Positions 29,662 through 45,142 of a DNA stretch of 64,000 bases are shown here, in pieces. The translations under genes and the position numbers were made by a program. The stretch lies in NCBI GenBank assembly GCA_050287085.1, contig JBNKBE010000011.1:138240-202239 (forward strand), in the 5' to 3' direction. The stretch is from Polyangiaceae bacterium (lineage in GTDB: Bacteria; Myxococcota_A; Polyangia; Polyangiales; Polyangiaceae). Position 1 is the stretch's first letter. Each line of letters starts with the position of its first letter. Under the pieces are notes generated by a model. The model did not search any database. It had not been told where the DNA came from and was given only the letters and a program-made list of their open reading frames with translations.

Positions 29662-30763
29662 GAGCGTCGAGTAAGAGCTGACCGAAGCTCATTTCGGCGA
29701 CGGGCGAAGGAATCACAATAGTCGGCTCGAAACCAGTTGGCAGAGCGGCTTCGATGCGCGCGCCTGCACCCGTGGCACTCGTGCTCTCGGCCGCAGAGGG
29801 CCGACTCGAGCCAACTGCGTCGGGCTCTGAACGCAACCCCAGATCAGAATACGCCCCCGACTCCGACACGGATTCGTGGCGCGCCTCATGCTGGCGCTGG
29901 CGTTCTGCTTGCGCGGCATCGTGCGCCCGCAGCTCCTCTTGCGCTTGAGCCGGGGGGCGCAAGCTCGCATCATACGCTGCGGCAAAGGTGCCGACTGGCA
30001 ACACTTCCTCGAGCCCATCTGGCTGCAAAGCATCTTGCTCTGAGGGCTCGGGCGGCCCCACTGTCGTCCGGTGCAACTCGAGCCGGGACGGATCCGAATC
30101 GCCTTCGAGCTCAACCGTGGTGCCCAACTGCGCCATGGTGGGAACGGAGCCCGGCATGGAAACGGGTGCCCCGATATCGAGCTCGGGCTCGGGCATTTCG
30201 ATCCGCAGCGGCGGCGTAGAAACGATGGGACCGGACTCAGGCGGCGGGGTTCGCCCCTCTTGCTCGATGGAGCTTGCGCCATCGATTCCGTCCACCTCCT
30301 CCATCTCGCTGGAGGCCGGCATCGTCTCTTCTTCTTCTGCGCTGAGCTCTTCTTCAACGTATCCCGGAACACCCGAATGCGGAGGCTCGGGCTCCTCAGC
30401 CGCGGTCCACTCGGTGCCACTCGATCGCTGAGACAGCGGTCCAGCGTCCTCCTCCTCAACCGAGGCCCCAAAGGCAGCTTGGGCGCGCGCCGCCTGCACG
30501 TCTCCGTCGGTCACAATCGGATGCTCAAATGAAGTCGCGATCGCGTCCCGATGGGCTGCCTCGTCCGCAGCCACGTCCAAGGTCGTGACCTCCAGATCGG
30601 TATTCGGGGTGCTCGAGAGCAGGATGTCCTCGGCATTGAGCTCGAGCGCGCTTTCTTCTTCGACGGCCAAAGGAGAAAGACCGGCGCTGCGCTCAGCAAC
30701 AAGGGCCGAAGCATTGCGGCGCACTCGTTCGAGAAGGCCTTCGAGTTTCTGAAGCTGCTCCAT
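29645..30763 (-). CDS. Acidic, largely disordered hypothetical protein
   Basis: 372-aa ORF with AAGGAG RBS, ordered-looking termini; abuts upstream gene. Confidence 0.7.
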   Translation of the reverse strand: MEQLQKLEGLLERVRRNASALVAERSAGLSPLAVEEESALELNAEDILLSSTPNTDLEVTTLDVAADEAAHRDAIATSFEHPIVTDGDVQAARAQAAFGASVEEEDAGPLSQRSSGTEWTAAEEPEPPHSGVPGYVEEELSAEEEETMPASSEMEEVDGIDGASSIEQEGRTPPPESGPIVSTPPLRIEMPEPELDIGAPVSMPGSVPTMAQLGTTVELEGDSDPSRLELHRTTVGPPEPSEQDALQPDGLEEVLPVGTFAAAYDASLRPPAQAQEELRAHDAAQAERQRQHEARHESVSESGAYSDLGLRSEPDAVGSSRPSAAESTSATGAGARIEAALPTGFEPTIVIPSPVAEMSFGQLLLDALKLGQ

Positions 30764-31345
30764 TTACGCCGCTCCTTGTGTCGCGTTCAGCCGGGCCAAG
30801 ATCTCCCCATAATGGCGCCCCTCCCCCAACCACGACAAGACTGTTCCACGCGCACGCTCGTTGCATGCAAGCAAACGCACGACGCTGCCATCACGCGAAA
30901 GAGCCACAACACGCGCAGATAGGTTCAAACGGCCCAGGACACCCTCCAGCACGGCCCCCAGGAAGACATCACCTGGATCGACCTTTGCGCCCGTACCAGC
31001 GCTGAGCAACAGGGTGCTGTTGGAAATGGTGAACACTAGGGCGCGTCCCCAGCGCTCCAAGCCCAAACGCCCGAGCCCCATCATAGCGAGATGGCAACCA
31101 AGGTGGTCCACCACCCGTTGTGGAGGTAACTCCTCGAGATCGGGCAGCTCGTCCTCCAGAACACGCGCAACCTGTAGGCCCAGACCACGCCCGAAGTCGA
31201 CCAGCGTTTCCGTCGAGAGTTCGCGAAAGAGCCCAACCAGGCTTTGAAAGGGCACAAGCACACAGGGCTCGCCCGAACCAAGACGAACTCGTCCTTCGCC
31301 CAAGTCAAATCGGACCGCGCTCTGCATCGTGGACTGCTCAGCCAA
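30764..31345 (-). CDS. Hypothetical protein, V4R-like fold suspected
   Basis: FDLGEGRV..L.P..SL..L..FGRGLG..MGLGRL..ERWG pattern. Confidence 0.6.
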   Translation of the reverse strand: MAEQSTMQSAVRFDLGEGRVRLGSGEPCVLVPFQSLVGLFRELSTETLVDFGRGLGLQVARVLEDELPDLEELPPQRVVDHLGCHLAMMGLGRLGLERWGRALVFTISNSTLLLSAGTGAKVDPGDVFLGAVLEGVLGRLNLSARVVALSRDGSVVRLLACNERARGTVLSWLGEGRHYGEILARLNATQGAA

Positions 31346-31546
31346 TGATCATCCTTTCCACCGTGAGCGCTACGGGCCCGGCGTCTCGAAAGTATAGGCC
31401 GCGTTGGCCACTCCATGTCAAAGTCCTTGCAAATGAGGGCGTTCTCCAAGGCCGAGCCCTCCGGGTGCGCACTAGGCCACCTTGCGGGTTTGCGTAGGCA
31501 AGCGTAGGACTAGATCAGGTGTAATGAGCGCGTCTGGGCGCGGGAA

Positions 31547-33004
31547 GTGGTAGTGAGTCGGGTAGTGAGATGGAGCTGGGTGTCATACTTCGATAACCGT
31601 CTCCCGGGCGGGCTACGGGCGGCGCCCCACCCCTTTGCCAAGTCAAGACCGTTCTGGACCACGTTTCTGCTCGTGCTGGCGCTCTCTGCGCCGCTGCTTG
31701 CCGATCCGTCGTCGCGAAGCCTGTTGCTCGGAGGCCCGGCAAGCAGCCACTACCAGCCGAAAGACCTCGCCGCCCACCTTCCCCTGGGGGCGGCACTGCG
31801 AGTCCAAGTTCGGCCAGCTCTACCAGCCGTAGCCTGCGCCCCCAGAGCCCCCGTGTGCGCCCACGCTTCAACGCAGGCCTTGGCCGACCGCGGCGCGCAG
31901 CTCATGGCGCAAGCCTACGAACGACTGAGCATCGCCGTGGACCTACCACTGCCCCACGGCGATGGAGATGCGGGCGGCGGACCGGAACTCGATCTGTATC
32001 TCGTTTCGGACGCAAGCCCCCTCGTTGTCACCGCCGATCTGAGGACCCTGCAAGCAGACAGCACGTCGGGCCATTGTCAGCTCGGGGCCCTGGCATTGTC
32101 CGCCCAGGCGGCGACCCGCTGCTGGGTAGAGCTGAGCGCACTCCGCCTAGATGCCGCAGAGACTCCGGCTTTGCGGGCAGGCCTAGGCGAATACGAGTCA
32201 TGGTTGGCGCTCGGTCCCAGTGCCGCGGCAGCCGATCTCATCGGATTCGCACAAGCGAACCCTCAGCTCGGTTTGGCTGGACGAGCGCGCACCCCGGAAT
32301 CCGCCGCTAGCGCCCTCTGGTGGGCTCACCTAGACGCCTCCTTGTCCAAATGGGAGCCAGGCAAACTGCCGCTCGCCACCTACGCTCTCAGCCGCCGCGA
32401 CGAATCCTTGAAGCATAAGTGGCCGCCCAATGAGAGCATACAGTGGCGCAATGCCCCGGACGCGCTCGATGTGGTGCGCTCCTTCTTCGATCTAAATAGG
32501 GAGCGCGAGGCAGAGCATTGGCTACAATGGGCCGTGGACCGTGCCTTCATGGGCAGCCGCGACGACGGCGCTCACGCTGCTGCGGTACCATGGACGCAAG
32601 ACGAGGGACGGATCCGCTTCGACTGGACGCTGAAGACATCCACTCTGCCTCGCTACGTGATGAGCGAGCGGGCCATTGAACCCCTTGGCGCGATGTACAC
32701 CTGGGTAGAGCTGGACGACGCCCCCACCCAGCTCGGTTTGCGCGTCGAGTGGGAGCCTCCCGTCCGCTTTCACTGGGCCGTGGTGGGCGTGGACGAGAAG
32801 GGACGCGAAACCACCCGCTGGGAACTCGCCTACACGGAGCAGGAGCAACGGCTCGAACGTACGCTCATGAATTTTGCAAACGCGGTTGGGTTGATCATCG
32901 TGGGCGTCAATCTAGGAGGGGTGTCCTTGCAAACCCCTTTCGAGCCGGACTTTCAACCCTGGGAGCCACACCGCGCGTCTGTTTATCTCGCTCGCCTCGA
33001 GTGA
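31547..33004 (+). CDS. Secreted hypothetical protein
   Basis: 485-aa ORF with signal/TM segment; no catalytic motif recognised; start uncertain. Confidence 0.65.
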   Translation: MVVSRVVRWSWVSYFDNRLPGGLRAAPHPFAKSRPFWTTFLLVLALSAPLLADPSSRSLLLGGPASSHYQPKDLAAHLPLGAALRVQVRPALPAVACAPRAPVCAHASTQALADRGAQLMAQAYERLSIAVDLPLPHGDGDAGGGPELDLYLVSDASPLVVTADLRTLQADSTSGHCQLGALALSAQAATRCWVELSALRLDAAETPALRAGLGEYESWLALGPSAAAADLIGFAQANPQLGLAGRARTPESAASALWWAHLDASLSKWEPGKLPLATYALSRRDESLKHKWPPNESIQWRNAPDALDVVRSFFDLNREREAEHWLQWAVDRAFMGSRDDGAHAAAVPWTQDEGRIRFDWTLKTSTLPRYVMSERAIEPLGAMYTWVELDDAPTQLGLRVEWEPPVRFHWAVVGVDEKGRETTRWELAYTEQEQRLERTLMNFANAVGLIIVGVNLGGVSLQTPFEPDFQPWEPHRASVYLARLE

Positions 33005-35553
33005 GCGTCGCGACGTCGCGACAGCGTCGCAAGAGCTGCCGCGCCAAAGGCCAACAAGCTACCGGGAAGCGGCTCGTGGGGCAGCCCGAAAGCGCAACCG
33101 CCGTCCCCCTCTTGAGCAGACGCGTCGCGCTCCCGCTGGCGTACAATCGGGACCTCGACGTCCATGCTGAAGCCTTGGCCGTCGGAAAGCCCGACCGTCA
33201 GCGTCTTGCCAGCGGCCGCTTGATAGGCTTCAAGCGAAAGCTCGATTAGCCCGTTAACCCGTTGCTTCCTAGAGCGAAGTCTACCGTTGGCGATTGAGAG
33301 CTCGAGGGCGCGAAGCGACTCCTTCGCAAGAGGGTTCCCCGAGGTATCGCGCAGCAGCGCCAGCACCGCCAGCGGGGGCTCGCCCCCGGCGTAGGCTATG
33401 TTGTCGCCAGGTCGAAGCTCCGACTCCGCCGCACTCGGGCGCGACCTCGCGGCGGCCGAGCCCTCCATCGCGGAGAGACTGCGCCGGGCATTGACGATGC
33501 CCGCCCCCGCAAGGGATCCCTCGTCCTGAGTTCGGGATGCCCCTGCCAGCAACAAAGCTCGCATCTCCTTGTGATCGATCGAGGGATCCCGTTCGAAAAG
33601 GAGAGCCGCTACTCCGCTGACCAGCGGTGCGGCAAAGGACGTTCCTACCGCCGTACCCAAGTTATCATCCACCAATGCGCAGTTCGGCTCGGGGTTGGAG
33701 TCCGCGTCAAAGCACACCGGACTTCGCAGGAAGAGACTCACCGAATTGTTGCTCCCAAGACGCAGAGGATGAGCACGCGTCGAAACTGCACCCACAATCG
33801 CCGCCCCAGGCGCCAAGAGCTCTGGCTTCAGGGTCCCGGCCTCGGCAGGCCCGGCAGCACTGAACGGCGCTACACGCCCCAACATGCCCTGCGGCACCAG
33901 CTCACCGTGAAAACGAGCCGACACAGCTTCATCTTGTTGATACCCCGGCCATTGGAGCCGGTTCCAAGTGGCTCCAACCGCTATGAGCTCCGGCGCGTCC
34001 GCGGGAACGCTCACGGTACCCGAGCGCCATGCGGAGGTGAACAACACGCCCGAGCTCCCCGCAAACGGGCTGTAGCTGCCGTCTGACTGAACCCATAGGT
34101 CCACCACGCCGCCGCCTTCGATCACGATTTCGTAGTCCGCATTGGGCGTGATATCGCCGGCGAAGACCAGCGCCGCGCCGCGATCGAGTCCATCGACCTC
34201 GATATCAGGCTGCGCCTGGTTAAGCACACTGACCTCCCAGCGCCGGTCCGCACCGTCCACGACGCGAACCGCCTGTTGCTCACCTGGAGCCAGCGGCTCG
34301 ACCAGCACCTGACCGTCGCCTGCCCGTAAGCCAACACGCAACTCATCGAGCTTCGTTGCGCTAATCCAGAGGAAAGCAAGTGCACTATCGTAGGCGTCGA
34401 TATCGGGAGTCCGAAGGGGCGCCGCGCGGCTCTCGCCCTCAGCAACATGAAGCTGAGTATGGATCCCCAAGCGCTCGTTGCCGTTCGCCTGAACCTCTCC
34501 GCCGTTGCCAGCGGCCAGTACAATCGCGCGCCCAGTCCGTTCGGACGCAAGCTCGACCAGAGCCTGGCCGATGGCCGAGGAGCCATCGTGAGGTCCAAAG
34601 TCGCCACCCAAACTCAAGTTGACGACGGCCGGCTTGGCATCGTCAGCCGCCCGCTCGAAGACAAAACGAGTGCCAAGCAGCACCGCTTCATCCGCAACCA
34701 TCGCGTCGGTCGTGGCAACACGAACCACAATTAGCTCGGCTTCTGGGGCTACGCCGGCGTATTGCGGCTTGCGCCCGCCGTTGCCAGCCGCGAGAGACGC
34801 GACGAGCGTACCATGACCCAAGATGTCGGGAGGCAGTGTGACCAGGTCACCGTTGAGCACTACCCCTCCGGAAGTAACCAGCTCCTGGAGCTCCGGAGGG
34901 CCTAATACGGCGCAGCTATACGCCTCTCCGTCGCAGCCTAATTCCGCTTCGATTTCAGGATAGATCCCAAGCGGCTGCAGACCAAAGTCGAGCCACCAAC
35001 TGACCCGGCTCACACCACCGCCCGCCAGCGTGGGATGGCGAAGCTCAAGGCCGCTGTCGATGATCCCGATCACAACACCCGCGCCGCTGCCACGGTCAGC
35101 CCCCAGCGACTCCCGCGCAGCACCGAGCTCGAGAATACCACTGGCCCGATCCAGCAATAGCCGCCGCGGCGCTGACCACAAGGCGATGCCATCGCCCTCG
35201 TCCGCCCGGCCCCCCCTAGGGAGAAGTGAATAGTGCCGACCGAGCGCCACGGCCCCCAGAGGGCCAGCCCCCGCCGCGTGCCGCATCAGGTGGAAGCGGC
35301 CTCCGAAACGCGTGCCCTCCCAGGCCCGTAGCTGCTCGAAAAGCTGCGGCTTTCCGAGGTTTTGCGCCTTGTGAGGAGGGACGGCCGCGGGAGCCACAGC
35401 CGGGGCAGCGAGCAACAGCAACAGCAACAGCATCCGGACGAGGATGACCCGAGGCCAAGCGCAGTATCGTGCGCGCGGCGTCTGCCGGCGCCCTGCGCGA
35501 GCCCCCGACGCCCTTTCACGGCTCGGCAAGCAGTTGCTCCACGCTCGACTCAA
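32983..35553 (-). CDS. S8 (subtilisin-like) serine peptidase with MYXO-CTERM-like tail
   Basis: IGIIDSG, GHGTLVAS, AAGN, GTSFAAP triad motifs; GDGGC + TM + RRR tail; start probably ~35433. Confidence 0.93.
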   Translation of the reverse strand: MSRAWSNCLPSRERASGARAGRRQTPRARYCAWPRVILVRMLLLLLLLAAPAVAPAAVPPHKAQNLGKPQLFEQLRAWEGTRFGGRFHLMRHAAGAGPLGAVALGRHYSLLPRGGRADEGDGIALWSAPRRLLLDRASGILELGAARESLGADRGSGAGVVIGIIDSGLELRHPTLAGGGVSRVSWWLDFGLQPLGIYPEIEAELGCDGEAYSCAVLGPPELQELVTSGGVVLNGDLVTLPPDILGHGTLVASLAAGNGGRKPQYAGVAPEAELIVVRVATTDAMVADEAVLLGTRFVFERAADDAKPAVVNLSLGGDFGPHDGSSAIGQALVELASERTGRAIVLAAGNGGEVQANGNERLGIHTQLHVAEGESRAAPLRTPDIDAYDSALAFLWISATKLDELRVGLRAGDGQVLVEPLAPGEQQAVRVVDGADRRWEVSVLNQAQPDIEVDGLDRGAALVFAGDITPNADYEIVIEGGGVVDLWVQSDGSYSPFAGSSGVLFTSAWRSGTVSVPADAPELIAVGATWNRLQWPGYQQDEAVSARFHGELVPQGMLGRVAPFSAAGPAEAGTLKPELLAPGAAIVGAVSTRAHPLRLGSNNSVSLFLRSPVCFDADSNPEPNCALVDDNLGTAVGTSFAAPLVSGVAALLFERDPSIDHKEMRALLLAGASRTQDEGSLAGAGIVNARRSLSAMEGSAAARSRPSAAESELRPGDNIAYAGGEPPLAVLALLRDTSGNPLAKESLRALELSIANGRLRSRKQRVNGLIELSLEAYQAAAGKTLTVGLSDGQGFSMDVEVPIVRQRERDASAQEGDGGCAFGLPHEPLPGSLLAFGAAALATLSRRRDAHSRRAR

Positions 35554-36610
35554 AACGCTCGAGCTCAGGACCGCTAACGCCCACCATCAGGTCGTTCACA
35601 ATCCCCCGCTTGTCGATCGCAAAAACAAGCGGCAGCGAATAGGCGCTATAGGCATCTGATATCTTGCCGCCTTCATCCCACAAGACTGGGTAACGCAACC
35701 CCAGCGACGCCGCATCGCGAGTCGCCTGTTCAAAGGGGTCCAGCGTTACCCCAATCACGGAAACACCGAGGGCACGGCGCTCGTGCCAGGCGTTGAGATG
35801 AGGCGTCAAGGCGCGACAAGGACCGCACCAGGCAGCCCAAAAATCTAGCAAGACGACGCGCCCCTGAAGTTGGAGAAGGCTGGTGGGGACGTTGCCCTGA
35901 ACAAGTCGCCCCGTGGACACATTAGGCGCGGGATAGCCCACGTAGTGCCGGCGCAGACGTTCGCTCAGCGACGGACGCGGCACCACTTGTATTCTCACGA
36001 GCCGCGCCTTGCCATCGCGCAGAAATGCTAGGCCCCCAACGTCCCCCGGGTGCAGCGCCGAAGTCACCCGCCGGAAGTCGTCCACGGTGGCCAGCGACTC
36101 CCCGTTCCAAGTCTGCAGCACATCACCCTCTTCCAACCCAACGCCTTCCGCCGGCGAGCCCCGTGAAACGCGTTGCAAGGTAAGCCCGGCTGCGGCCGGT
36201 CGAACCTGGAGCCCCAGCCAAGGCTCACCCGCGGAGGACCGCGCGTCGGACACACTTGGACCGGCGGGCACCGCTTCAATTGTTTGGGGCAGCTCCGGAG
36301 ACGCCGGCTGGAACGTGCCCTGAAGGTCGATGGGAGGTGCCAAGGGCAAAGCGCTGGGTATGGCTGTAGCGGGATCTTGCCTGGGAGGCAGCGAGGGCTC
36401 GGAAGGATGGCAAGCGCTCAAGGCGAGTACTGCCATCAGGAGGTTGCTCACCACGGCCCGGAAAGATAGTGCTCTTGGATGCGCCACGCGCTCGCCTTCG
36501 GATTGCTGCTGAGCGGCTGTACAGGACGTACGCCCTACCCGTCCAACATCGGATCTAGCCACTATAGCGCGAGATCGGCAAGTGCCGACGAAAGCGACGC
36601 CCAATCGCAA
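35516..36610 (-). CDS. Lipoprotein with PDZ and TlpA-like thioredoxin domains
   Basis: PWLGL..GSPA..GL..GDV (PDZ); LDFWAAWCGPC; start probably ~36436. Confidence 0.88.
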   Translation of the reverse strand: MRLGVAFVGTCRSRAIVARSDVGRVGRTSCTAAQQQSEGERVAHPRALSFRAVVSNLLMAVLALSACHPSEPSLPPRQDPATAIPSALPLAPPIDLQGTFQPASPELPQTIEAVPAGPSVSDARSSAGEPWLGLQVRPAAAGLTLQRVSRGSPAEGVGLEEGDVLQTWNGESLATVDDFRRVTSALHPGDVGGLAFLRDGKARLVRIQVVPRPSLSERLRRHYVGYPAPNVSTGRLVQGNVPTSLLQLQGRVVLLDFWAAWCGPCRALTPHLNAWHERRALGVSVIGVTLDPFEQATRDAASLGLRYPVLWDEGGKISDAYSAYSLPLVFAIDKRGIVNDLMVGVSGPELERFESSVEQLLAEP

Positions 36611-37051
36611 GACACCGACGCAACCTCAAGACCGCGACACCGGGTGCGCCCCGACTCCGAGAAAACGCAACTCATCCCTTGGCCGCCCGCAGAAGGCCAG
36701 CGTCGCGCAAGCAGTCACGGCCCCAATCGTTGGTACGAAGTACGGCTACCGCGGGAATTCGGCCCGACCTACGCAGTGTGGTCACGCGGAGCTCAGGCTC
36801 CGGAAGGAACGCTCATCGCAGTAGCACTGGCGGCGAGTCCGGACGCGGACTTCGACGCCCTATGGACGATGGTCAAGAAAGACGGTGTCTGGCGCTTCGA
36901 GGTTTGGCCCACTGATGGCAACAGCGCTGATTCAACCCCGCTCCGGAGTAGCGAAAACACGCGGACCACCACGCTCTGTCATCAGTGTCATAGCCAGGCG
37001 ACAAGCGACTACGTCTTTGGTCCAGGCAGCTCGAACGGCGCTGAACGTTGA
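36479..37051 (+). CDS. Monoheme c-type cytochrome lipoprotein (cytochrome P460-like layout)
   Basis: Lipobox LSGC; M.K...W.F segment; C-terminal CHQCH..DYVF. Confidence 0.7.
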   Translation: MRHALAFGLLLSGCTGRTPYPSNIGSSHYSARSASADESDAQSQDTDATSRPRHRVRPDSEKTQLIPWPPAEGQRRASSHGPNRWYEVRLPREFGPTYAVWSRGAQAPEGTLIAVALAASPDADFDALWTMVKKDGVWRFEVWPTDGNSADSTPLRSSENTRTTTLCHQCHSQATSDYVFGPGSSNGAER

Positions 37052-37415
37052 GCGCGCAAACACGGCTCAAGCGACAGGCAAACTAAGCGTAAGCGTTAAG
37101 AAAGGCTGTGAAGCGAGCCATCTCGACCGGAACCCTGACGCGGCTGGACGGCCGCAGCTGACAGGGGCGCAAGACGGCAAGGGTTAGACCTGTAATTGGG
37201 TACTTGCAAGATGACGGCCGGCTCCAGAGCGACGACCAGGCTCAAGGCAAGAAAGAATGCCGACGGGATGACTCAACGCCAGCAATGAACCGAAACTAGG
37301 CAAGTTCGGCGGTGCAACGGTCCAGGAGCACCGCCGAAAAGGCAACCAAGGAGGAAATTAAGCGAAAGGTAAGAAGTGTGTAAGCTAAGCGACAGAAGAT
37401 TAAGGAAGGTTGCAC
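37052..37415 (-). ncRNA. Candidate sigma54-dependent CUU-rich structured non-coding RNA (~360 nt)
   Basis: No credible ORF; 24 AAG vs 1 CTT on + strand; several hairpins; directly downstream of a sigma54 motif; 3' end not defined. Confidence 0.55.
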
Positions 37416-37425
37416 CAAGGCCTTA

Positions 37426-37441
37426 AGCATAGGTCGTGCCA
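37426..37441 (-). promoter_or_regulatory. Sigma54 (-24/-12) promoter
   Basis: Minus strand TGGCACGACCTATGCT vs consensus TGGCACG-N4-TTGCW, correct GG-GC spacing. Confidence 0.75.
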
Positions 37442-37451
37442 ACCCCATCAG

Positions 37452-37469
37452 GCGCCAGAATTCTGGCGC
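37452..37469. promoter_or_regulatory. Perfect 18-bp palindrome (operator or + strand terminator)
   Basis: GCGCCAGAATTCTGGCGC followed by TTTT. Confidence 0.5.
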
Positions 37470-37811
37470 TTTTAGGCTCGTACCTCGCCAATTCTCCAGT
37501 CCGTTGCGAACTTGGAGGAGTTTTCCCGGATCCTCATGTCATACTCGACCCCGCGTTGGGCCGCTCCCGAACCCATCGAAGCCCGCGAAGCCACGGGCCG
37601 CGGGGTGGTGTTTGCGCCGGAAACGGACATTGCCGCTAGCTCCACGACTCTCGTGTCCTAGTCGCCCCCGCGGGTCCTAAGACGCTTCCCTGAGCACAAC
37701 CTGCTTCCAAGGCGGGCCAGACCTACAGCCGACCAAAGACTGTTTTTTGCCCCGAGCCAACAGAAGATACTCGCAACCGCCCAAAGGCATGTTAGTAACC
37801 GCGCTCCCAAA

Positions 37812-37885
<74 letters not shown>

Positions 37886-37959
37886 CAGCATCAAAAAGGC
37901 CTGATTCGCTCCCCTTCGCGGGGAGCCCTGTTCACAGCCTGATAACACGCGAGGAAGCC

Positions 37960-38175
37960 TTGGCTCTCCTCGCGTTTGCACGTGAGGGGGTCGGAGTTCC
38001 CCGGGAGCGTGCCGAAGCATTTGCTCGCGCGGTTCTTGACCTGGACGACGCCAGCCGTCTGGCGTTGGCCGTTCTCGACGGCGGACTGTTCGCCGGTGCG
38101 CGACTGGTCGAGCTCGCGGCACTCGTGGCCGAACCGTCCGCGGGGGCGGATGGCGCGGAAGGCGCATCGTCATGA
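37960..38175 (+). CDS. Small ORF downstream of tRNA; frame open from 37822 through the tRNA; possible C-terminal piece of a split integrase
   Basis: No stop 37822-38172; ATGA-coupled to Rep gene; integrase origin is inference. Confidence 0.45.
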   Translation: MALLAFAREGVGVPRERAEAFARAVLDLDDASRLALAVLDGGLFAGARLVELAALVAEPSAGADGAEGASS

Positions 38176-39472
38176 TGGCGCGAGCGGGCATCGTTCGCCC
38201 CTCTCGGGCGGCTCGGCGCGCTTGTAAGAACAAGGATAAGTCGCCGGAGACGGAAACGAGGCCCGACAGGGCCGGCCGTCTTCGGCGTGCGAAGGCACTA
38301 CCCAAACAGGCTTGGGAAGGCCTACCTCCGTACGTCCAAGCTTGCGCAGCGAACCGCCACCGCAAGCGCCCGTACTTCCTCTACGTGTGGAACCCCGACA
38401 ATCCAAACAAGAAGACCCGCATCGACTACTTCTGTCGCAGCTGGCGCTGCCCCTACTGTCGACACCATGAGAGTCACGTCTTGTATTCGCGTGTCAGGGA
38501 GGCCTTCGAGCCATTCAACGCCGCGGACATCGTGTTCTTTGTGCTGACGCTCGACCCGAGGGAACACCAACGCGGCAAGACCGAGCTGACCCAAGTCTAC
38601 AGGGAGTTCACCCGGCGCGGTGCCAATCTGCTCAAGCGTGTGCGACGCTGGATGACGAAGCACGGCATGAAGCCGTTCGGAAGCGAGTGGGTCTCGACTA
38701 TCGAAGCGCACAAGTCTGGCGTTCCGCACATCAACTACATGGTGCACAGTCCCGAGCTCGCGGCGTTCTTTCGGGCGGACGCAGAGTCGAGACGGGTTGC
38801 TGGTGAAAGCAGCGTCGAGTCCATCATCATCCGCGGCGAGCTGCGTCAGCACCTGGAGGCGTGCGGCTTCGGTTGGCGGTCAACCGCAGAAGCTGTGCGC
38901 CTCCATGGTGATGCAGTGAACGGCGTATCCAAGCTCGCGGGCTACATCACGAAGATTGCCGGCAACACGGAGAAGACGCACGGCGAGCTCGCCAAGTTGA
39001 GCCAAGTGCCATTGATGGCGCCAAAGAACTTCCGTCGACTCCGCTCGGGAAAGAAGTTCCTGCCCAAGCGCCGCAAGGGTGACGGGACCGGCGCTCTCCT
39101 CCGGCGTTACCCATCCAGGGAAGGCGACGAGGCGCCGAAGCGGTCACGCGCAGTTCCGACCCGGAGTACATGGCTCATGTGCGCGCTTGCGTGAGGCAGG
39201 AACAGGAACTGGTCTTCGAGGATGAGCGGCGGGTTGCGACGAACCGTTTCTGTGTGCGGTGGGGCCTGCCGCTGGCCACGGTGCCGCCCGTTCAGGCGTT
39301 CTTGTTGCCGCCGGTGAAGGTCTACGCGAAACCCGTGCCGCCCGCCGTCGACCAGCGCGAACAGTGCGCGTTCGATTCACCAGTTCAGCTTGTGATACGG
39401 GTCAACGGTCATGCGCGAGGCGGGCGCCAGGGCTACGCACCGGCGTCGCTCTCCTTCGCGGGCTGCTCCTGA
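38172..39472 (+). CDS. HUH rolling-circle replication initiator (Rep); probable -1 frameshift near 39133 (frames 38172-39194 and ~39134-39472)
   Basis: Zn ribbon CRSWRCPYC, motif I FFVLTLD, motif II EAHKSGVPHINYMV, motif III GYITK. Confidence 0.8.
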
Positions 39473-39927
39473 CGTGCGCCAACCCTCCCCCCCAGCTGGT
39501 TCCTCTTCTGAAACGTACCGATGTTGATAGTGGGCAGCGGAGGTAGCACGAGCCCGCCGGCGCCTGTCACCATCGCCACGTGAGCGCGAAAGTACGGGTA
39601 TACAGCCATGCGGCCGACGTCTGTCAGAAAAGCGATAGCAGCACCGTCGTCTTCGTCGACCCGGCTGTAGTGCACAAGGTAGCGAGCCTTTACGACGAAC
39701 ATGGCCTCGCGAGCCTCGTTGTCCCTGATTCCGCGAAAGAGCCATTCGCAAACGCCGACGACGGCGCCCTCGTTTGCCCGATGCTCCTGTTCGACCCAGT
39801 TGGTACCAATCTCCAACGACAGCGGCTCCCCTTGGGCATGCTCGGGCTTCAGGTCGAACTCCGAGTACACCAGCTTGAGCGCTTCGAGGCGCGCCTTCGC
39901 CGCGATGGACGCGTACGCTTCGCTCAA
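39433..39927 (-). CDS. SecB-like chaperone (TAC chaperone)
   Basis: F.VKARYLVHY strand, AVYPYFRAHV..VT...GL.LPPLPTIN SecB-type C-terminal signature; 4-nt overlap with antitoxin. Confidence 0.85.
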   Translation of the reverse strand: MSEAYASIAAKARLEALKLVYSEFDLKPEHAQGEPLSLEIGTNWVEQEHRANEGAVVGVCEWLFRGIRDNEAREAMFVVKARYLVHYSRVDEDDGAAIAFLTDVGRMAVYPYFRAHVAMVTGAGGLVLPPLPTINIGTFQKRNQLGGRVGARQEQPAKESDAGA

Positions 39928-40478
39928 GCTGCCCTCACATCGTTCGCGGGGTCAAAGTCGAACTCGTATTCTGGCGCGGGTGACCAGACATGAACAGGCT
40001 CATGCCAGACAATGTCCTCTTCGGCATGAGCCGCCACCCTAACGCTCGCGGTGTCGTGCGCGCTCTCGCGCTGCAAGCGACGGTGCACCTCGGTAGGATA
40101 GATAGCAAAGGCTTCCAAGAGCCCTATGAGCGGCTCACTTGCTTCCTTCCGCCCCTTGAGCAGATGTGACAAGTACGTGGGAGTAACACCACACGCACGC
40201 TCGACGTCACGATTGGATACTCCGGCTTTCTCGTGAATGGTCTCCACCAAGAAGGTCAGGTGCGTTCGTTGGTCCGCCAGGTACGTTGGTCTGAGCACTG
40301 CCTTCGCTGCCTCGCGCAGAGACTCATCGAAGAACATCGCACCGCAGACGCTGCACGTTGGCACCTCAAAGCCCGTCGGCAGTTCGTACTTGCTACCACG
40401 GCGATAGGTGAACATGCGACCCTCGCCGGAGCGGGGCTCGATTCGTCCCTCTAGGCATTCGGTACAGATTTCACTCAT
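39924..40478 (-). CDS. MqsA-like antitoxin (Zn ribbon + HTH) with C-terminal chaperone-addiction-like extension
   Basis: CTEC...CSVCG..FF; HTH VSNRDVERACGVTPTYLSHLLKG; ~45-aa aromatic/acidic tail. Confidence 0.85.
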   Translation of the reverse strand: MSEICTECLEGRIEPRSGEGRMFTYRRGSKYELPTGFEVPTCSVCGAMFFDESLREAAKAVLRPTYLADQRTHLTFLVETIHEKAGVSNRDVERACGVTPTYLSHLLKGRKEASEPLIGLLEAFAIYPTEVHRRLQRESAHDTASVRVAAHAEEDIVWHEPVHVWSPAPEYEFDFDPANDVRAA

Positions 40479-40887
40479 CGTCTTCCTCTTCGTAGTCCAG
40501 GACGGTGGTCCTCAGGACGGTTTGGTCTGCAAGGCGTATCTCTCGGGTTGGATGAAAGGACAAGAACCACTTCTTGCTACTGAGGCCTTCGCCCAGACGG
40601 ACGCCGAGCTTGATGTACCAGGCGTATTCTTCCTCTGAGCGGCCACCAAAAGCGTCGCGCATGATTCCGTAGACGTCGGCGCACGGCTCGTATTCGGCTC
40701 CAGGTTGGGGCCAGTTGCCGCAGAAGTCAGAAGGGTCTAGCTGGCGACATATCTTCTTCACGACCTGCATGTACTCGTCCCCCAAGAGTCCAATAAGTCG
40801 CTCCACCCGGGCCTCGCTGATGCGAAGCTCGACTGCGCCGCTTGCTATACCGGCCTTCAATGCGGCCAAATCGTGGAGCGGCTTCAA
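40471..40887 (-). CDS. MqsR-like (RelE-fold) mRNA interferase toxin
   Basis: P.HDL..LK, L.PSDF, DVY, WYIKL, LSFH follow the MqsR pattern; 8-nt overlap with antitoxin. Confidence 0.82.
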   Translation of the reverse strand: MKPLHDLAALKAGIASGAVELRISEARVERLIGLLGDEYMQVVKKICRQLDPSDFCGNWPQPGAEYEPCADVYGIMRDAFGGRSEEEYAWYIKLGVRLGEGLSSKKWFLSFHPTREIRLADQTVLRTTVLDYEEEDDE

Positions 40888-40904
40888 CCTGGCCTGTGCC
40901 CTTC

Positions 40905-40932
40905 ACTATAGGGTGCATTGTACTCAGTACAA
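40905..40932 (-). promoter_or_regulatory. Sigma70 promoter of the TAC operon with overlapping palindromic operator
   Basis: TTGTAC-16 bp-TATAGT; palindrome TTGTACT-G-AGTACAA (40918-40932) covers the -35. Confidence 0.7.
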
Positions 40933-41092
40933 CCCATGACGACCGATTTGTCCAAAACGTTGAGGCTGCCCGCACCAATTCGGCCCGAAAGCCCCGCCCT
41001 GAAACGGTGCCCCCTGAACCCCAATTCAGCCTATTTGGCGCCGAATCTTGAGCGCCTGTCCAGTCTTTTGTGAGTTGAATCCGCTTAACCTG

Positions 41093-43260
41093 TCACGCCA
41101 CCGCGTACTTGCTCTGCCCGTCGCCCCAGTAGCTCTCGTAGACGTGTTCGAAGACCTGACCGCACTTCTTGTCGTACAGGTCGTCGCTGTAGGCGTCGGG
41201 GAGCGCGTCGAGCATGTCTTGGATGCACGCGCGGACTCCGGCTTTGCGGCGCGCTTTTTTGCGCCAGTCGATGACTAGCTTGTCCGCCTTGAGCTTGCTC
41301 AGTAGCTCCTTGGACAGATCTTTCACCAGCTGCCGGTCCTTCTTGGTCAACTCGACGCTCGGCTTGGTGAGCAGGTCGAAGACCGCGAGCTCTTCCACGC
41401 TGAGCCCCTCCTTGACGTGGCGCAGCTCTTCTTGGTTGAGCGACGCGATGAACTCCTTCAGCTGCTCGAAGGACTCTTGGACGTTTTGGGAGCCGGAATT
41501 GTACTCCTCAATGAGCGCCTGCAGCTTCTCGTAGAGGTCTTTGCGCGTCGGGTTCTGACGAACAAGCTCGTCTACCTTGCTGGTCGCGGCTTGCTGCAGT
41601 GAGTTCAGTGTGGCCCGCTGGCTCTTGGACTTGTCGAAGAACGCCTTGAGCGCGTCGAAGTCGATTTGGCTCAGGTCGACGCGACGGCTCACCGGCGGCA
41701 CCGAATCGGAGATGCGCATCGTCGTGGGCTCGGGGATGACATATCCGTGGGCGTCGATGGACTCGTCAAGCAAGTGCTCTACTTGCTGCATGACCTGGCT
41801 GATGTCTGGGGGCGGTATGTTCGCTTTGATGGCCTGGGCTACGAGCTTGATGACATCGCGGTCCTTCGCAAAAGGGTCGACACGCTCATCCAAGCCGATG
41901 GCTTTGAACAGGCGCTCGATACGTCCGGCCATGGCGAGGTACTTGCGCCGTGTCTCATCCGGGAAGATAAGTGCCTCCCGCGCTTCCTTCAGTCGAGCGA
42001 GCCGTTCGAGCACCGAGCCGTCATGAACGGTGTCGAGCTCGGTGCCATTGTCCTTGGCGAACGCTTTCTTGTCGCGGATGAGCTGCTCGAGTTCTGCTAC
42101 TTGCTCATCCTTGGGCTTGACCGGTGTGTCGCTCGCGCTCGTGCCTCCAGCGCCGCCGTAGATGGCGAGTGCCTTTTGCAGATTTCGGAAGACGCCGACA
42201 TAGTCGACGATGAGTCCGCTCGGCTTGTCCGGGTAAACGCGATTTGCGCGGGCGATGGTCTGCATCAGCGTGTGGTTGCGCATCGGCTTGTCGAGGTAGA
42301 TGGTTGAGCAACTCGGCACGTCGAATCCCGTGAGCCACATGGCGCAAACGAACACGATACGGAGCGGGCCCTCGTCGTCTTTGAACTGGACGTCGATGCT
42401 CCCTTTCTTCATCCGCTTGCGATGCGGGGCGATGTCCAGGCCCTTCTCCTTGAAATCCGCCACCTCGTTTTGCGACTCGGAGACGACAACAGCCATGTCG
42501 GTCTCGCGCATGAACTCAAGCTCGCGCTCGCGAGCCTGGCGCACCTGAGCGGGCGCGACCTTGAGCGCAGCCAACTCCGCTTCCAGCTTGGCCAGCTTCG
42601 CCTTCCAGGCGGCTTGCACCTTGTCGAACATGCGGACAGCGGTCACCTTGTCGATGGCGATGACCATGGCCTTGCCGCGACTGTCGCAGTCGCCGAGCCC
42701 CATGTAGTGCTCGACGAGGTCCGCTGCGACGGTGTCGAGGCGCTCATCGCGCGTGATGAGGTGGTACTGGCGCCCGAACTCGCGCTCGACCGCCTCTGTC
42801 TGGTCTTCGTCCAGGTCGGCCTTCTCAACGATGTCCGCCAGCTGCTCCGAAAGCTCTTCGTTGCTGAGCTGGAGTTCTGGAATACGGTTCTCGTAGTAGA
42901 GGGGGACGGTGGCGTTGTCCTCGATGGCTTGGCGGAAATTGTAGATGGAAACGTAGTCACCGAACGTTTCGCGGGTCTGCTCTTCACCGGCCATGAGGGG
43001 CGTCCCGGTGAAACCGATGAACGCCGCGTTGGGGAGCGCGTGGCGCAGATTGCGGGCGAAGGTGTCGTACTGGGAGCGATGGGCTTCGTCCGCAATGACG
43101 ATGATGTTGCTGCGCTCAGAAAGCGTTGGGTAGCGTTCGCCCTTCCGCTTCGCCTCTTTGTCGACCTGGAACTTCTGGATGAGCGTGAAGACGTAGCGAT
43201 GATTCTCGGTGAGCAGCTTCTTGAGGTGGGCGCCGCTCGTGGCCTGGACCCCGACATGAC
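41093..43260 (-). pseudogene. hsdR: Type I restriction enzyme R subunit, 5'-truncated (helicase and C-terminal parts only)
   Basis: TLIQKF, DEAHRSQY, FTGTP, QAIED.ATVP, MWLTGFD.P, H.LMQTIARANR; nuclease domain and Walker A absent. Confidence 0.9.
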
Positions 43261-43302
43261 TGGAGCTTGAATCCGGGGCGAACGACCTGGCCAAGAGGTG
43301 GC

Positions 43303-43721
43303 CGACTCAACGTTCACTTCCACATCATCCAGATCGACGGCGTTTACCTCCCCGAAGACGCAGCGACCGACGCTGGCCCGCTCAGCTTCTACCCCCTGCC
43401 AACTCCGAGCCGAACCGAGACGACCCGGGTCGCTGCTCGCATAGCCGATCGCGTGGACGCGATACTGAAGAAGCACGGCCGTAGTCTCGACCCCGACGAG
43501 GCCGACTCCGACCCCACCGAGCTTCAGCTCGACCATCCCGCTCTGGCTGCCTGCTACAGCGCGGCGGCCTTGGGTGTCGAGGTCAGCGGAGCAAGGGCGG
43601 GGCAGCCAGGACAGAGTCCGCTGCGAGGAGGCTGATGACCAAGCTGGGACTCGCCCCACACCCGCCGCCCACGCGACCCGCACCGCCGCTCGGTCAACTG
43701 AGCTTGCCGTTCGGCAAGTGA
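43303..43721 (+). mobile_element. IS91-family (HUH/Y2) transposase remnant, internally deleted
   Basis: RLNVHFHI..IDGVY; shares DRVDAIL.KHGRSLD and GQL.LPF with the copy at 45629-46645. Confidence 0.8.
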
Positions 43722-44128
43722 ACGGAGCTCAGTTCGAGGCCAACTCTCACCCTCGGACTCACCGAGGCCGCCCACTGCTCCATCCTCCGCACGGCTGCTG
43801 TAAGCCCGGGCAGGGTTCGTTGCGCAGAAGCCACGAGCCTCAGGCCATCGAGCAAGGTCCCCAGAACCCACCACGCACGCGGCCCGCGGTCCGAGACTTC
43901 CGTTTCCTGCCGTTTTCGTAGGTCGTTTGTCTTTGGCGCCGCCGGAACGAATCACGGAGTCACGCCCACAGATTCTCCGGAAGAGCCATAAATCCTAGAA
44001 TGTGCGCCAACTGGTTCGAGCAGCGGCTATGCGCTATGACGCGAGCTGATCCAACCTATTGCAAGGCGCTGTAATAGCGCCGACGGCCATGGACCAAGAC
44101 AAAGTGCAACAAGGAGGGAGATCTAGAG

Positions 44129-44866
44129 ATGGTACGTGAGATGATTGTGGCGTGTGGCAAGCTAGCGAGCTGTGTGATTTTTCTCGCGGTAGGCTGCGGT
44201 GGTGAACACCAAGCAGATTCGCCAACGTCGGGAGCGGCAGACGTGGCGGCTACCACAGAGTCAGGTGGCATGGGGACGGGTGATGAACAGTCACTCCAGG
44301 GCGCAGCGGAAACCGGCACAAAGGAAGTCGACGAGCGTAATTTTTACGCATTATTGCGAGAGACGCATATCACCTTTCCAGTTGCAGCGAATTATGTCGA
44401 ACAGACTGAGCGCAGCGAGTTGGTCGTGCGGGGAACGTTTGGCGCGATCGAGGGCAGCAGTATCTCTGCCTTTACTGGCGCCGGACGACAACTGAACGTC
44501 ATGGTCTTGGAGGTCGTGGTCAGCGAAACATTGAAGGGCGATCCGACAGAAAGCGCATACTTTGGCTACATCGTCTCTGGAGAGGTTTCGCTCGAAATGA
44601 TGCGGGAGCGCAAACCGGGAGACGAGCTCATCGTCTTTCTGAATGACGTCACTGACCTCGGTGTTTTCCCGGGCGTTGAGGGGCGTCCCGAAGGGACGCG
44701 ACTATATGAGATGGCAACGCCTCAAGGCCTTGTAGTCCGAGCAGAGAACGGAAGCGCCCTCCAGCCCTTGCTAGACGATCATCCTGACGCGATCATCAGC
44801 GAGCCATCGTCCTTTGGGGAGGTGGTGCTTGCCGTAAAGGCCGCAACTGAGGAACAGCCTCCATGA
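44129..44866 (+). CDS. Hypothetical lipoprotein
   Basis: Lipobox LAVGC; AGGAGG RBS; SELVVRG..V.ETLKG..LIVFL beta-domain pattern. Confidence 0.7.
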   Translation: MVREMIVACGKLASCVIFLAVGCGGEHQADSPTSGAADVAATTESGGMGTGDEQSLQGAAETGTKEVDERNFYALLRETHITFPVAANYVEQTERSELVVRGTFGAIEGSSISAFTGAGRQLNVMVLEVVVSETLKGDPTESAYFGYIVSGEVSLEMMRERKPGDELIVFLNDVTDLGVFPGVEGRPEGTRLYEMATPQGLVVRAENGSALQPLLDDHPDAIISEPSSFGEVVLAVKAATEEQPP

Positions 44867-45142
44867 GCCGAGCGGCGGCGAGGTAACCCGCGCTCGCCGG
44901 CCAGTCGGCTTGGTGGCGTAGATCGTCCGTCACGCCGAGCGCGTCGTGCGCAACGAGGATGTTCGAACGGTGTTTTTGTGTACGAAGTCGCCGAGGCCCG
45001 TCCTGCAAAGCCGCGATGGCAGCCGCGACCGAGCCGATGAGCGGGAGCTTCATTCGCTCAAAGCGATCGGCTGATCGGTGGAATGCGAATAACGAAAGAA
45101 AGCATGAATCAGAAGCGGCGCTGATGGCACTTCATCATTGAA

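Follow-up and report, generated by a model that had tools for sequence, protein, structure and literature searches.

The window, a stretch of 64,000 nucleotides from a Polyangiaceae bacterium, very probably contains a gene for a non-coding RNA with a sigma54 promoter and a dense array of CUU motifs, one copy of what appears from its sequence to be an independent, apparently single-copy RNA gene of the class Polyangia. The preferred reading, to which we give a probability of roughly 60%, is that of a protein-titrating RNA controlled by an enhancer-binding protein, which would be built like CrcZ or RsmZ with a new motif. Promoter, enhancer, motif array and terminator polarity can be read directly from the DNA, and transcription, regulation and function are inferred from them. 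A preliminary description had proposed an undescribed sigma54-driven CUU-repeat RNA on the minus strand, and this core claim is borne out by synteny, by the enhancer, by terminator polarity and by inversion of the unit. The sponge logic is known already; it is the motif, the lineage and the partner that would be new.

The window copy and its surroundings

The locus comprises the following elements, in window coordinates.

37529..37541, minus strand: candidate upstream enhancer, a degenerate YGACA-N4-TGTCR with right half GATC (from the motif and same-genus loci)
37452..37469, no strand: perfect 18-bp palindrome, then four T on the plus strand, between enhancer and promoter
37426..37441, minus strand: sigma54 -24/-12 promoter, TGGCAC-N6-TGC (from sequence; syntenic in 17 of 20 relatives' tRNA-Arg(ACG) loci)
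37050..37415, minus strand: predicted non-coding RNA of about 365 nt with 24 CUU, 3' end uncertain (from sequence)
37339..37415, minus strand: 5' single-stranded CUU tract with 11 motifs (by count; mostly unpaired in the partition function)
37305..37338, minus strand: spacer hairpin 1, -21.1 kcal/mol, without CUU (by folding; not alignable to relatives)
37259..37284, minus strand: spacer hairpin 2, -9.0 kcal/mol on the minus strand against -2.8 on the plus strand, stable only on the minus
37133..37166, minus strand: spacer hairpin 3, -16.3 kcal/mol on either strand (by folding)
37052..37114, minus strand: 3' CUU tract with six motifs (by count)
37048..37072, minus strand: last hairpin, -9.6 kcal/mol, without a U tail, candidate 3' end (by folding), overlapping the stop codon of the convergent gene
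37812..37886, plus strand: tRNA-Arg(ACG), divergent neighbour and synteny anchor (tRNA/Rfam match)
36479..37051, plus strand: cytochrome P460-like gene, convergent neighbour (below the Pfam cut-off)
35516..36610, minus strand: PDZ-thioredoxin (AhpC/TSA) gene, second synteny anchor (domain match), its true start probably lying further downstream than this call

The plus strand of 37052-37415 holds 24 AAG against 1 CTT, i.e., 24 CUU against 1 AAG on the minus strand (AAG 26 and CTT 2 on the plus strand over the full span, 37052-37441), which confirms the counts given earlier; at least 24 motifs were reached by 0 of 5000 mononucleotide and 2 of 5000 dinucleotide shuffles. The 24 CUU stand in the contexts CCUU (8), UCUU (7), GCUUA (5) and others (4), and the repeat noted earlier near both ends, CUGUCGCUU, is indeed present at 37395 and 37077. 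Ranked genome-wide in 364-nt windows, the window copy is the tenth AAG/CTT peak. AAG is mostly confined to one or two reading frames, in a lysine-codon-like manner, in the 16 other peaks inspected; in the window copy it is spread over all three frames, each with 5–6 stops. With 16 CTT in the 200 nt on its 3' side, the window site is the highest of 1218 relaxed sigma54-like sites in the source genome (the next has 11), and the scan of these sites revealed no paralogue of the RNA there. The locus had also been called AT-richer than its flanks, which holds for the direction of the difference and less for its size, the excess being mild (56% GC against 62% and 60.5%).

The predicted RNA has no ATG within its first 200 nt, and the 100-aa GTG reading frame on the plus strand that overlaps its far end (36885-37187) is without a Pfam match. 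The Rfam scan that had been suggested, run over 30000-45000 of the window (E<=5), returned the tRNA as its only match and no known family at the RNA. Each of the three hairpins described earlier folds as claimed, that at 37259-37284 on the minus strand alone, and the window RNA as a whole is no more stable than shuffled sequences (z -0.10). The hairpin at 37048-37072 did not come up in the terminator scan, and no U-tailed terminator follows the last motifs of the window copy; as these motifs run to a hairpin without a U tail, the 3' end is uncertain. Mere compositional drift, or a small coding gene, would agree with this folding and with the lack of an alignable homologue, but against it stand the shuffle and genome-wide ranks, the recurrence at syntenic sites and the coding potential of the RNAs from the tRNA-chosen loci treated below, 10 of 18 of which are without ATG in the first 200 nt and which share no reading frame. 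Such an origin is highly improbable and is already largely refuted.

The sigma54 promoter that had been placed at 37426-37441, aimed into the CUU region, is there and is conserved by synteny; from the usual geometry of sigma54 promoters, transcription presumably starts at about 37415. The enhancer sits about 90–100 nt upstream of the -24 element, with equal motif and distance in same-genus loci, and is a probable candidate site for a sigma54 enhancer-binding protein. The palindrome between the two has no counterpart seen in the relatives' upstream regions and, with its four T, may end the mRNA of the convergent P460-like gene; with 37452-37473 as its terminator, this mRNA would run antisense over the entire RNA gene. 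Palindrome and four T would also fit a plus-strand product that has its terminus in the 37452-37473 hairpin, be it an AAG/GGA-rich RNA, the alternative already raised in the preliminary description, or the P460-like gene's own long 3' UTR, and a reader might be sought in the CsrA encoded by the source genome, the plus strand having 7 GGA. However, the skew follows the strand of the sigma54 promoter in every carrier, inverted ones included, the CUU strand is the one that bears promoter and U-tailed hairpins, the convergent gene is missing in many carriers and antisense GGA counts range from 0 to 8. The single CsrA gene, moreover, is directly behind a flagellin-like (FlgL-like) gene with a sigma54 site of its own, and Hfq, the reader of ARN repeats, was not found in the source genome. 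A plus-strand RNA retains the slightest of chances.

P460-like homologues flank the RNA at 8 of 32 loci searched, and PDZ-thioredoxin homologues were found at 13 of 32. Behind the tRNA-Arg, window positions 37887-43294 look like a mobile island. It holds a gene of 340 aa whose matches to rolling-circle replication proteins are weak (E 0.005-0.013), a gene with an HTH and a fragmentary type I restriction subunit R, and the 3' end of the tRNA is not repeated within the window.

Recurrence in the class Polyangia

Two sets of loci were chosen through the tRNA and are the only unbiased ones, part of the 63 loci discussed below having been found by patterns that require the enhancer or CUU. In the first, picked via the tRNA alone, 21 of 30 loci have the ACG anticodon, the window copy included; a divergent sigma54 site is missing at three of them (L014, L017 and L025) and present at 18. 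All 18 have 11–19 CTT in the 200 nt downstream of the site and 0–4 in the 200 nt upstream. Promoter and CUU skew, on whose conservation the preliminary description had made its claim depend, are therefore both kept at 17 of 20 ACG loci of relatives. The second, family-wide set of 30 loci has 18 with ACG, or 15 once the window copy and two repeats are left out, and the RNA unit is present at 10 of these 15 new loci and at 0 of 12 loci of other anticodons. A DNA search with the window copy matched 0 of 17 other genomes of the genus, DNA similarity searches elsewhere gave the tRNA alone or nothing, and local alignment scores between the window copy and its relatives are at or slightly above the best shuffle. 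As judged from these comparisons, the design is conserved and the linear sequence is not.

Pattern searches were made order-wide and over one genome per species. The latter yielded 38 loci, 29 with at least 8 CTT in 200 nt, from which three non-myxobacterial (chance) loci, L113 (of another RNA type) and ten duplicates were dropped; several record titles of the remainder are uninformative, and the informative ones read Polyangia, Polyangiales, Sandaracinaceae, Nannocystaceae, Haliangium, Kofleriaceae, Myxococcales, Myxococcota and HGW-Deltaproteobacteria. The order-wide search gave 13 loci without the tRNA. Among the family's carriers are genomes in a single contig (G217, G573). The member set comprises 63 loci, 51 of which have the enhancer, as YGACA-N4-TGTCR or a degenerate form. 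A U-tailed hairpin was found on the CUU strand at 51 of the 63 and on the opposite strand at 14, a contrast inflated by the tendency of a U-rich strand to favour such calls. Apart from the window, 31 loci were compared with Rfam and none matched (18 of them at E<=3, 13 at E<=2).

The neighbours differ by family, with LolA, cNMP-binding and S8 protease genes beside the RNA, and in three genomes (L280, L287, L243) promoter and CUU tract are inverted as one unit between unchanged flanking genes. Thus, the RNA unit behaves as an independent gene, and of the signs that it is a self-contained transcription unit the inversion is the clearest. This bears on a further alternative, that the tract is a cis element, either an extended 5' leader belonging to the gene downstream or a part of the tRNA-Arg promoter region that acts as DNA. 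The PDZ-thioredoxin or LolA genes are often next on the same strand, and the link to the tRNA is kept across the family; yet the next gene is convergent in the window, neighbours change by family, the tRNA is missing at 13 loci, the unit has been inverted and U-tailed hairpins close most copies, and a cis role is very improbable.

Outside the class, the promoter-plus-CUU pattern is no commoner than chance, occurring in 15 of 242 genomes where the reversed control occurs in 24, and 0 of 15 inspected loci have the enhancer; the RNA was thus not found in the outside genomes searched. Within it, strict patterns gave no match in many genomes, so that presence is under-counted and absence carries no conclusion. 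A compact variant is seen at L074, L078, L080, L098, L100, L104 and L106, the CUU tract running out into long stretches of U that lack a strong hairpin, and with further enhancer-like palindromes downstream of the tract. The literature searched, mainly abstracts with few subscription papers, holds no description of a CUU-repeat RNA in myxobacteria. A published survey of Myxococcus xanthus non-coding RNAs reportedly exists that could list the RNA without naming it, and the same is true of the supplements of large RNA-motif screens.

The enhancer and its regulon

The strict enhancer with a sigma54 site 78–135 nt downstream was found in 93 of 301 genomes of the phylum against 4 of 301 for the reversed-pattern control, and on account of this difference YGACA-N4-TGTCR can be regarded as a real regulatory site; in the window's own family it has a degenerate form. 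It is not named in the accessible portions of PMC6211767, PMC3333781 and 10.64898/2026.06.06.730518. Many same-family loci have a second upstream site with a GCA-N5-TGC-like core, absent from the window copy, which resembles the NmpR consensus as outlined in PMC11841059. The source genome encodes some two dozen enhancer-binding proteins, and no single activator is assignable among them. An identity with the PilR site was rejected, the similar half-sites of pilin promoters being spaced by 5 nt and the 4-nt form occurring at 0 of 15; a PilR paralogue is a possible activator. The pilin promoters themselves (L201-L216) show recurrent GTGAC(A/G)-N5-TGTC-type palindromes upstream of sigma54 promoters, which are candidate PilR sites in the phylum.

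The enhancer with its promoter also drives other short RNAs. At six loci of another family (f30: L110, L113, L120, L121, L138, L153) this is a different short RNA, a stem-loop whose loop is of the type UCCCC(C/A)AC and which has a terminator at several of the loci; by eye it resembles the first loop of Pxr, and Rfam gave no Pxr match for it. In several other families (L149-L151, L157-L160, L162-L171) it is a third short RNA with a GAGA(C/U)G-type motif at its start and a strong terminator at its end; Rfam gave no match on L151 and L157, and the genes 3' of it read, from their sequence, like a lipid kinase or an FAD-linked oxidase. Judging by eye, we take the regulon to include an RpoD-like sigma factor, a CarD/CdnL-like gene and many lipoproteins (L108, L117, L118, L126, L161, L130 and others).

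Pxr (RF01812) and the CUU RNA are alike in being myxobacterial and in having a sigma54 promoter, an upstream enhancer and a terminator, as far as PMC5568312 and PMC5684412 outline Pxr. They differ in that Pxr is about 108 nt long with conserved stems and 5–6 CUU, and in that pxr sits behind its own regulator gene, pxrR, whereas the CUU RNA has different neighbours. Sites of the form TT[TG]CA-N4-TG[AC]AA are carried by 10 of 10 Pxr loci and the CUU-RNA enhancer by 0 of 10, which led to the rejection of the enhancer as a PxrR site and of the RNA as a stand-in for Pxr. The RF01812 model, which recovered 4 of 4 true Pxr loci at 123–129 bits, had 0 matches in the source genome (150 of 1209 candidates scored), the window and the member loci; Pxr searches over genome samples matched nowhere, and no absence is drawn from them. 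By model match, neighbours and palindrome, then, the CUU RNA is not Pxr as the available parts of PMC5568312, PMC5684412 and PMC10217877 present it. The TT[TG]CA-N4-TG[AC]AA motif occurs in two copies upstream of Pxr at L179-L188 and is a candidate for the PxrR binding site. The source genome encodes a protein with a PxrR-like helix-turn-helix (C8:98966-100432), and no Pxr was found there.

The motif array and its putative reader

The predicted RNAs are about 110–370 nt long with about 8–28 copies of (G)CUU(A), and motif number and RNA length vary freely between members, which fits a repeated binding site and not a single seed. In the 18 RNAs of the unbiased set, CUU (227) is the commonest trimer, followed by GCU (150), and GCUUA is the top 5-mer with 61 copies; the dominant motif spacings are 4 and 5 nt (31 and 45), CUU is preceded by G in 48% and by C in 19% of cases and followed by A in 49%, and the A content over the first 150 nt is 15%. 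CUU is unpaired at 0.65 against 0.38 elsewhere in the RNA, with shuffles reaching 0.62 and 27 of 39 RNAs lying above their shuffle; the motifs are distributed over hairpin, interior, multi- and exterior loops and stems alike. There is no special loop display of CUU, and its accessibility is largely compositional. The covariation check suggested earlier gave two-sided changes at 9 of 53 pairs (equalled in 1 of 500 shuffles), with CUUA in a hairpin loop, in one subgroup of 8 alignable sequences, close kin whose structure was derived from the same sequences; it gives modest support for a structured RNA and reaches no further than this subgroup.

These figures bear on two other readings of the array. 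The first is that of a base-pairing small RNA, whose CUU tracts would pair with purine-rich (AAG/AAGG) stretches of many mRNAs, in their ribosome-binding regions or in translational enhancers; the pyrimidine-rich tracts are unpaired, the window copy has one anti-SD-like stretch and 8 CCUU, and CCUU occurs in 14 of 18 RNAs. The anti-SD pairing of the preliminary description would, however, lead one to expect other motifs, the 18 RNAs holding CCUCC 3 times (in 3 RNAs) and CUCCU 8 times (in 6 RNAs) against GCUUA 61 times. The base before CUU is mostly not C, there is no conserved seed of pairing length, and Hfq was not found in the source genome, all of which makes pairing unlikely. The second is that of an array of endoribonuclease sites, serving as a decoy for RNase E/G or a GCU-cutting toxin, or for fast decay. 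The substrates of RNase E are single-stranded sites that have U two bases downstream, and that of MqsR is GCU, here the second commonest trimer. Against this, a purine two bases upstream of CUU is no commoner than background (0.38 against 0.37), a tandem spacing of 4–5 nt is unnecessary for cleavage, and no toxin gene was identified beside the annotated loci; this possibility is a poor one.

On the titration reading, an enhancer-binding protein, probably a two-component response regulator to judge from the DNA motifs, would bind YGACA-N4-TGTCR and activate the sigma54 promoter. The RNA would then display its (G)CUU(A) copies, often in 4–5 nt tandem, in poorly paired stretches between variable hairpins, and would mostly end at an intrinsic terminator. 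It would bind many copies of a single-strand RNA-binding protein, drawing it off its mRNA targets, as in the pairs CrcZ/Hfq and RsmZ/CsrB with CsrA. The protein-sponge proposal of the preliminary description thus agrees best with the anatomy and falls short in that no candidate partner is found in every carrier.

Hfq (PF17209) was not found in the source genome, which is 97% complete (control positive in 5 of 14), and its CsrA would read GGA. Of 8 carriers tested, 7 gave an RRM and G031, searched twice, gave none; a tandem-RRM protein was not found in carriers G031 and G050, and a cold-shock domain was absent from the search results in 9 of 18 genus genomes, the source genome included. The tandem-RRM protein and the cold-shock protein were each rejected as sole partner by these counts, which are to be read with the incompleteness of carrier assemblies, from which short genes can be lost. 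Since every carrier tested for both (the source genome, G031, G050, G144) has at least one of the two, they may share the role, and small RRM and cold-shock proteins taken together are the leading, if still doubtful, candidates. KhpA/KhpB come after them as an improbable choice and before an unrecognised protein. The source genome has four RRM genes and, by motif search, KhpA- and KhpB-like genes, and one of its small RRM proteins matches solved structures of hnRNP A1/A2, CIRBP and glycine-rich plant proteins. The domains of hnRNP A1 type recognise UAG/UUAG, which is contained in the tandem CUU motif. In Bacteroides, RRM and cold-shock proteins are described as functionally redundant (PMC13370968, in the part available).

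A Rho decoy was rejected: of 5 carriers, 4 (the source genome, G008, G011 and G031) gave no hit for the Rho RNA-binding domain and one, G217, did (control positive in 9 of 14), and the dimers UC and CC are under-represented in the RNAs (0.72 and 0.85). These searches by themselves make a loss of Rho in parts of the order possible. A mimic of the tRNA-Lys(CUU) anticodon loop was likewise rejected, the loop heptamer occurring 0 times in 18 RNAs. GCUUA is not enriched in the predicted leaders of the source genome (62 sense against 57 antisense, with a rough gene caller). One 464-aa porin-like gene there (L303, G000:C28, start 11648, minus strand), without a Pfam match, has a dense CUUA cluster in its leader, a feature not conserved in 14 homologue loci (2 without a usable leader).

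CsrB/CsrC and RsmY/RsmZ combine a repeated short motif with poor linear conservation, variable motif number and an intrinsic terminator. The CUU RNA is like them in its repeat design, an analogy noted for such RNAs in the accessible text of PMC4063720, and differs in the motif, GGA occurring twice on the transcribed strand of the window copy against 24 CUU, in that their motifs lie in hairpin loops, where CUU is not concentrated, in its sigma54 promoter and in the absence of any Rfam match at the thresholds given above. CrcZ/CrcY of Pseudomonas, in the CbrAB-RpoN-CrcZ-Hfq circuit, resemble it at the motif level in having a sigma54 promoter with an upstream activator site. According to the same partial source (PMC4063720), CrcZ joins such a promoter and a two-component activator to a repeat-motif titration design, and shares a length of a few hundred nt, many short motifs and a proposed protein titration. 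It differs in its A-rich (ARN)n repeats for Hfq, where the CUU RNA has CUU on the transcribed strand, and in its need for Hfq, which was not detected in the source genome. FopS/GibS of Bacteroides, with the RRM protein RbpB, offer a parallel for RRM binding of single-stranded RNA regions in a lineage without Hfq, as PMC11697453 outlines; FopS are 14 paralogues that pair with mRNAs via seeds, in contrast to one gene with many internal repeats, and RRM binding is putative for the CUU RNA, G031 having no RRM match.

Myxobacteria are without Hfq according to the part of PMC5684412 that is accessible, and Pxr alone was found as a myxobacterial small RNA in the literature searched. Neither BLAST nor Rfam can see the family, whose conservation is confined to promoter, enhancer and motif density, and this suggests that further sponge RNAs are escaping notice likewise. 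The enhancer defines a phylum-wide sigma54 regulon. More tentatively, the CUU RNA may be the founding member of a class of signal-controlled sponges whose target is a global RNA-binding protein, neither CsrA nor Hfq (RRM or cold-shock chaperones, KhpA/B or some further protein), and the output in Polyangia of a phylum-wide enhancer circuit that drives unrelated small RNAs in one myxobacterial lineage and another. With its identical sites, numbering up to two dozen, the RNA can serve as a bait for the missing global RNA-binding regulator of Polyangia.
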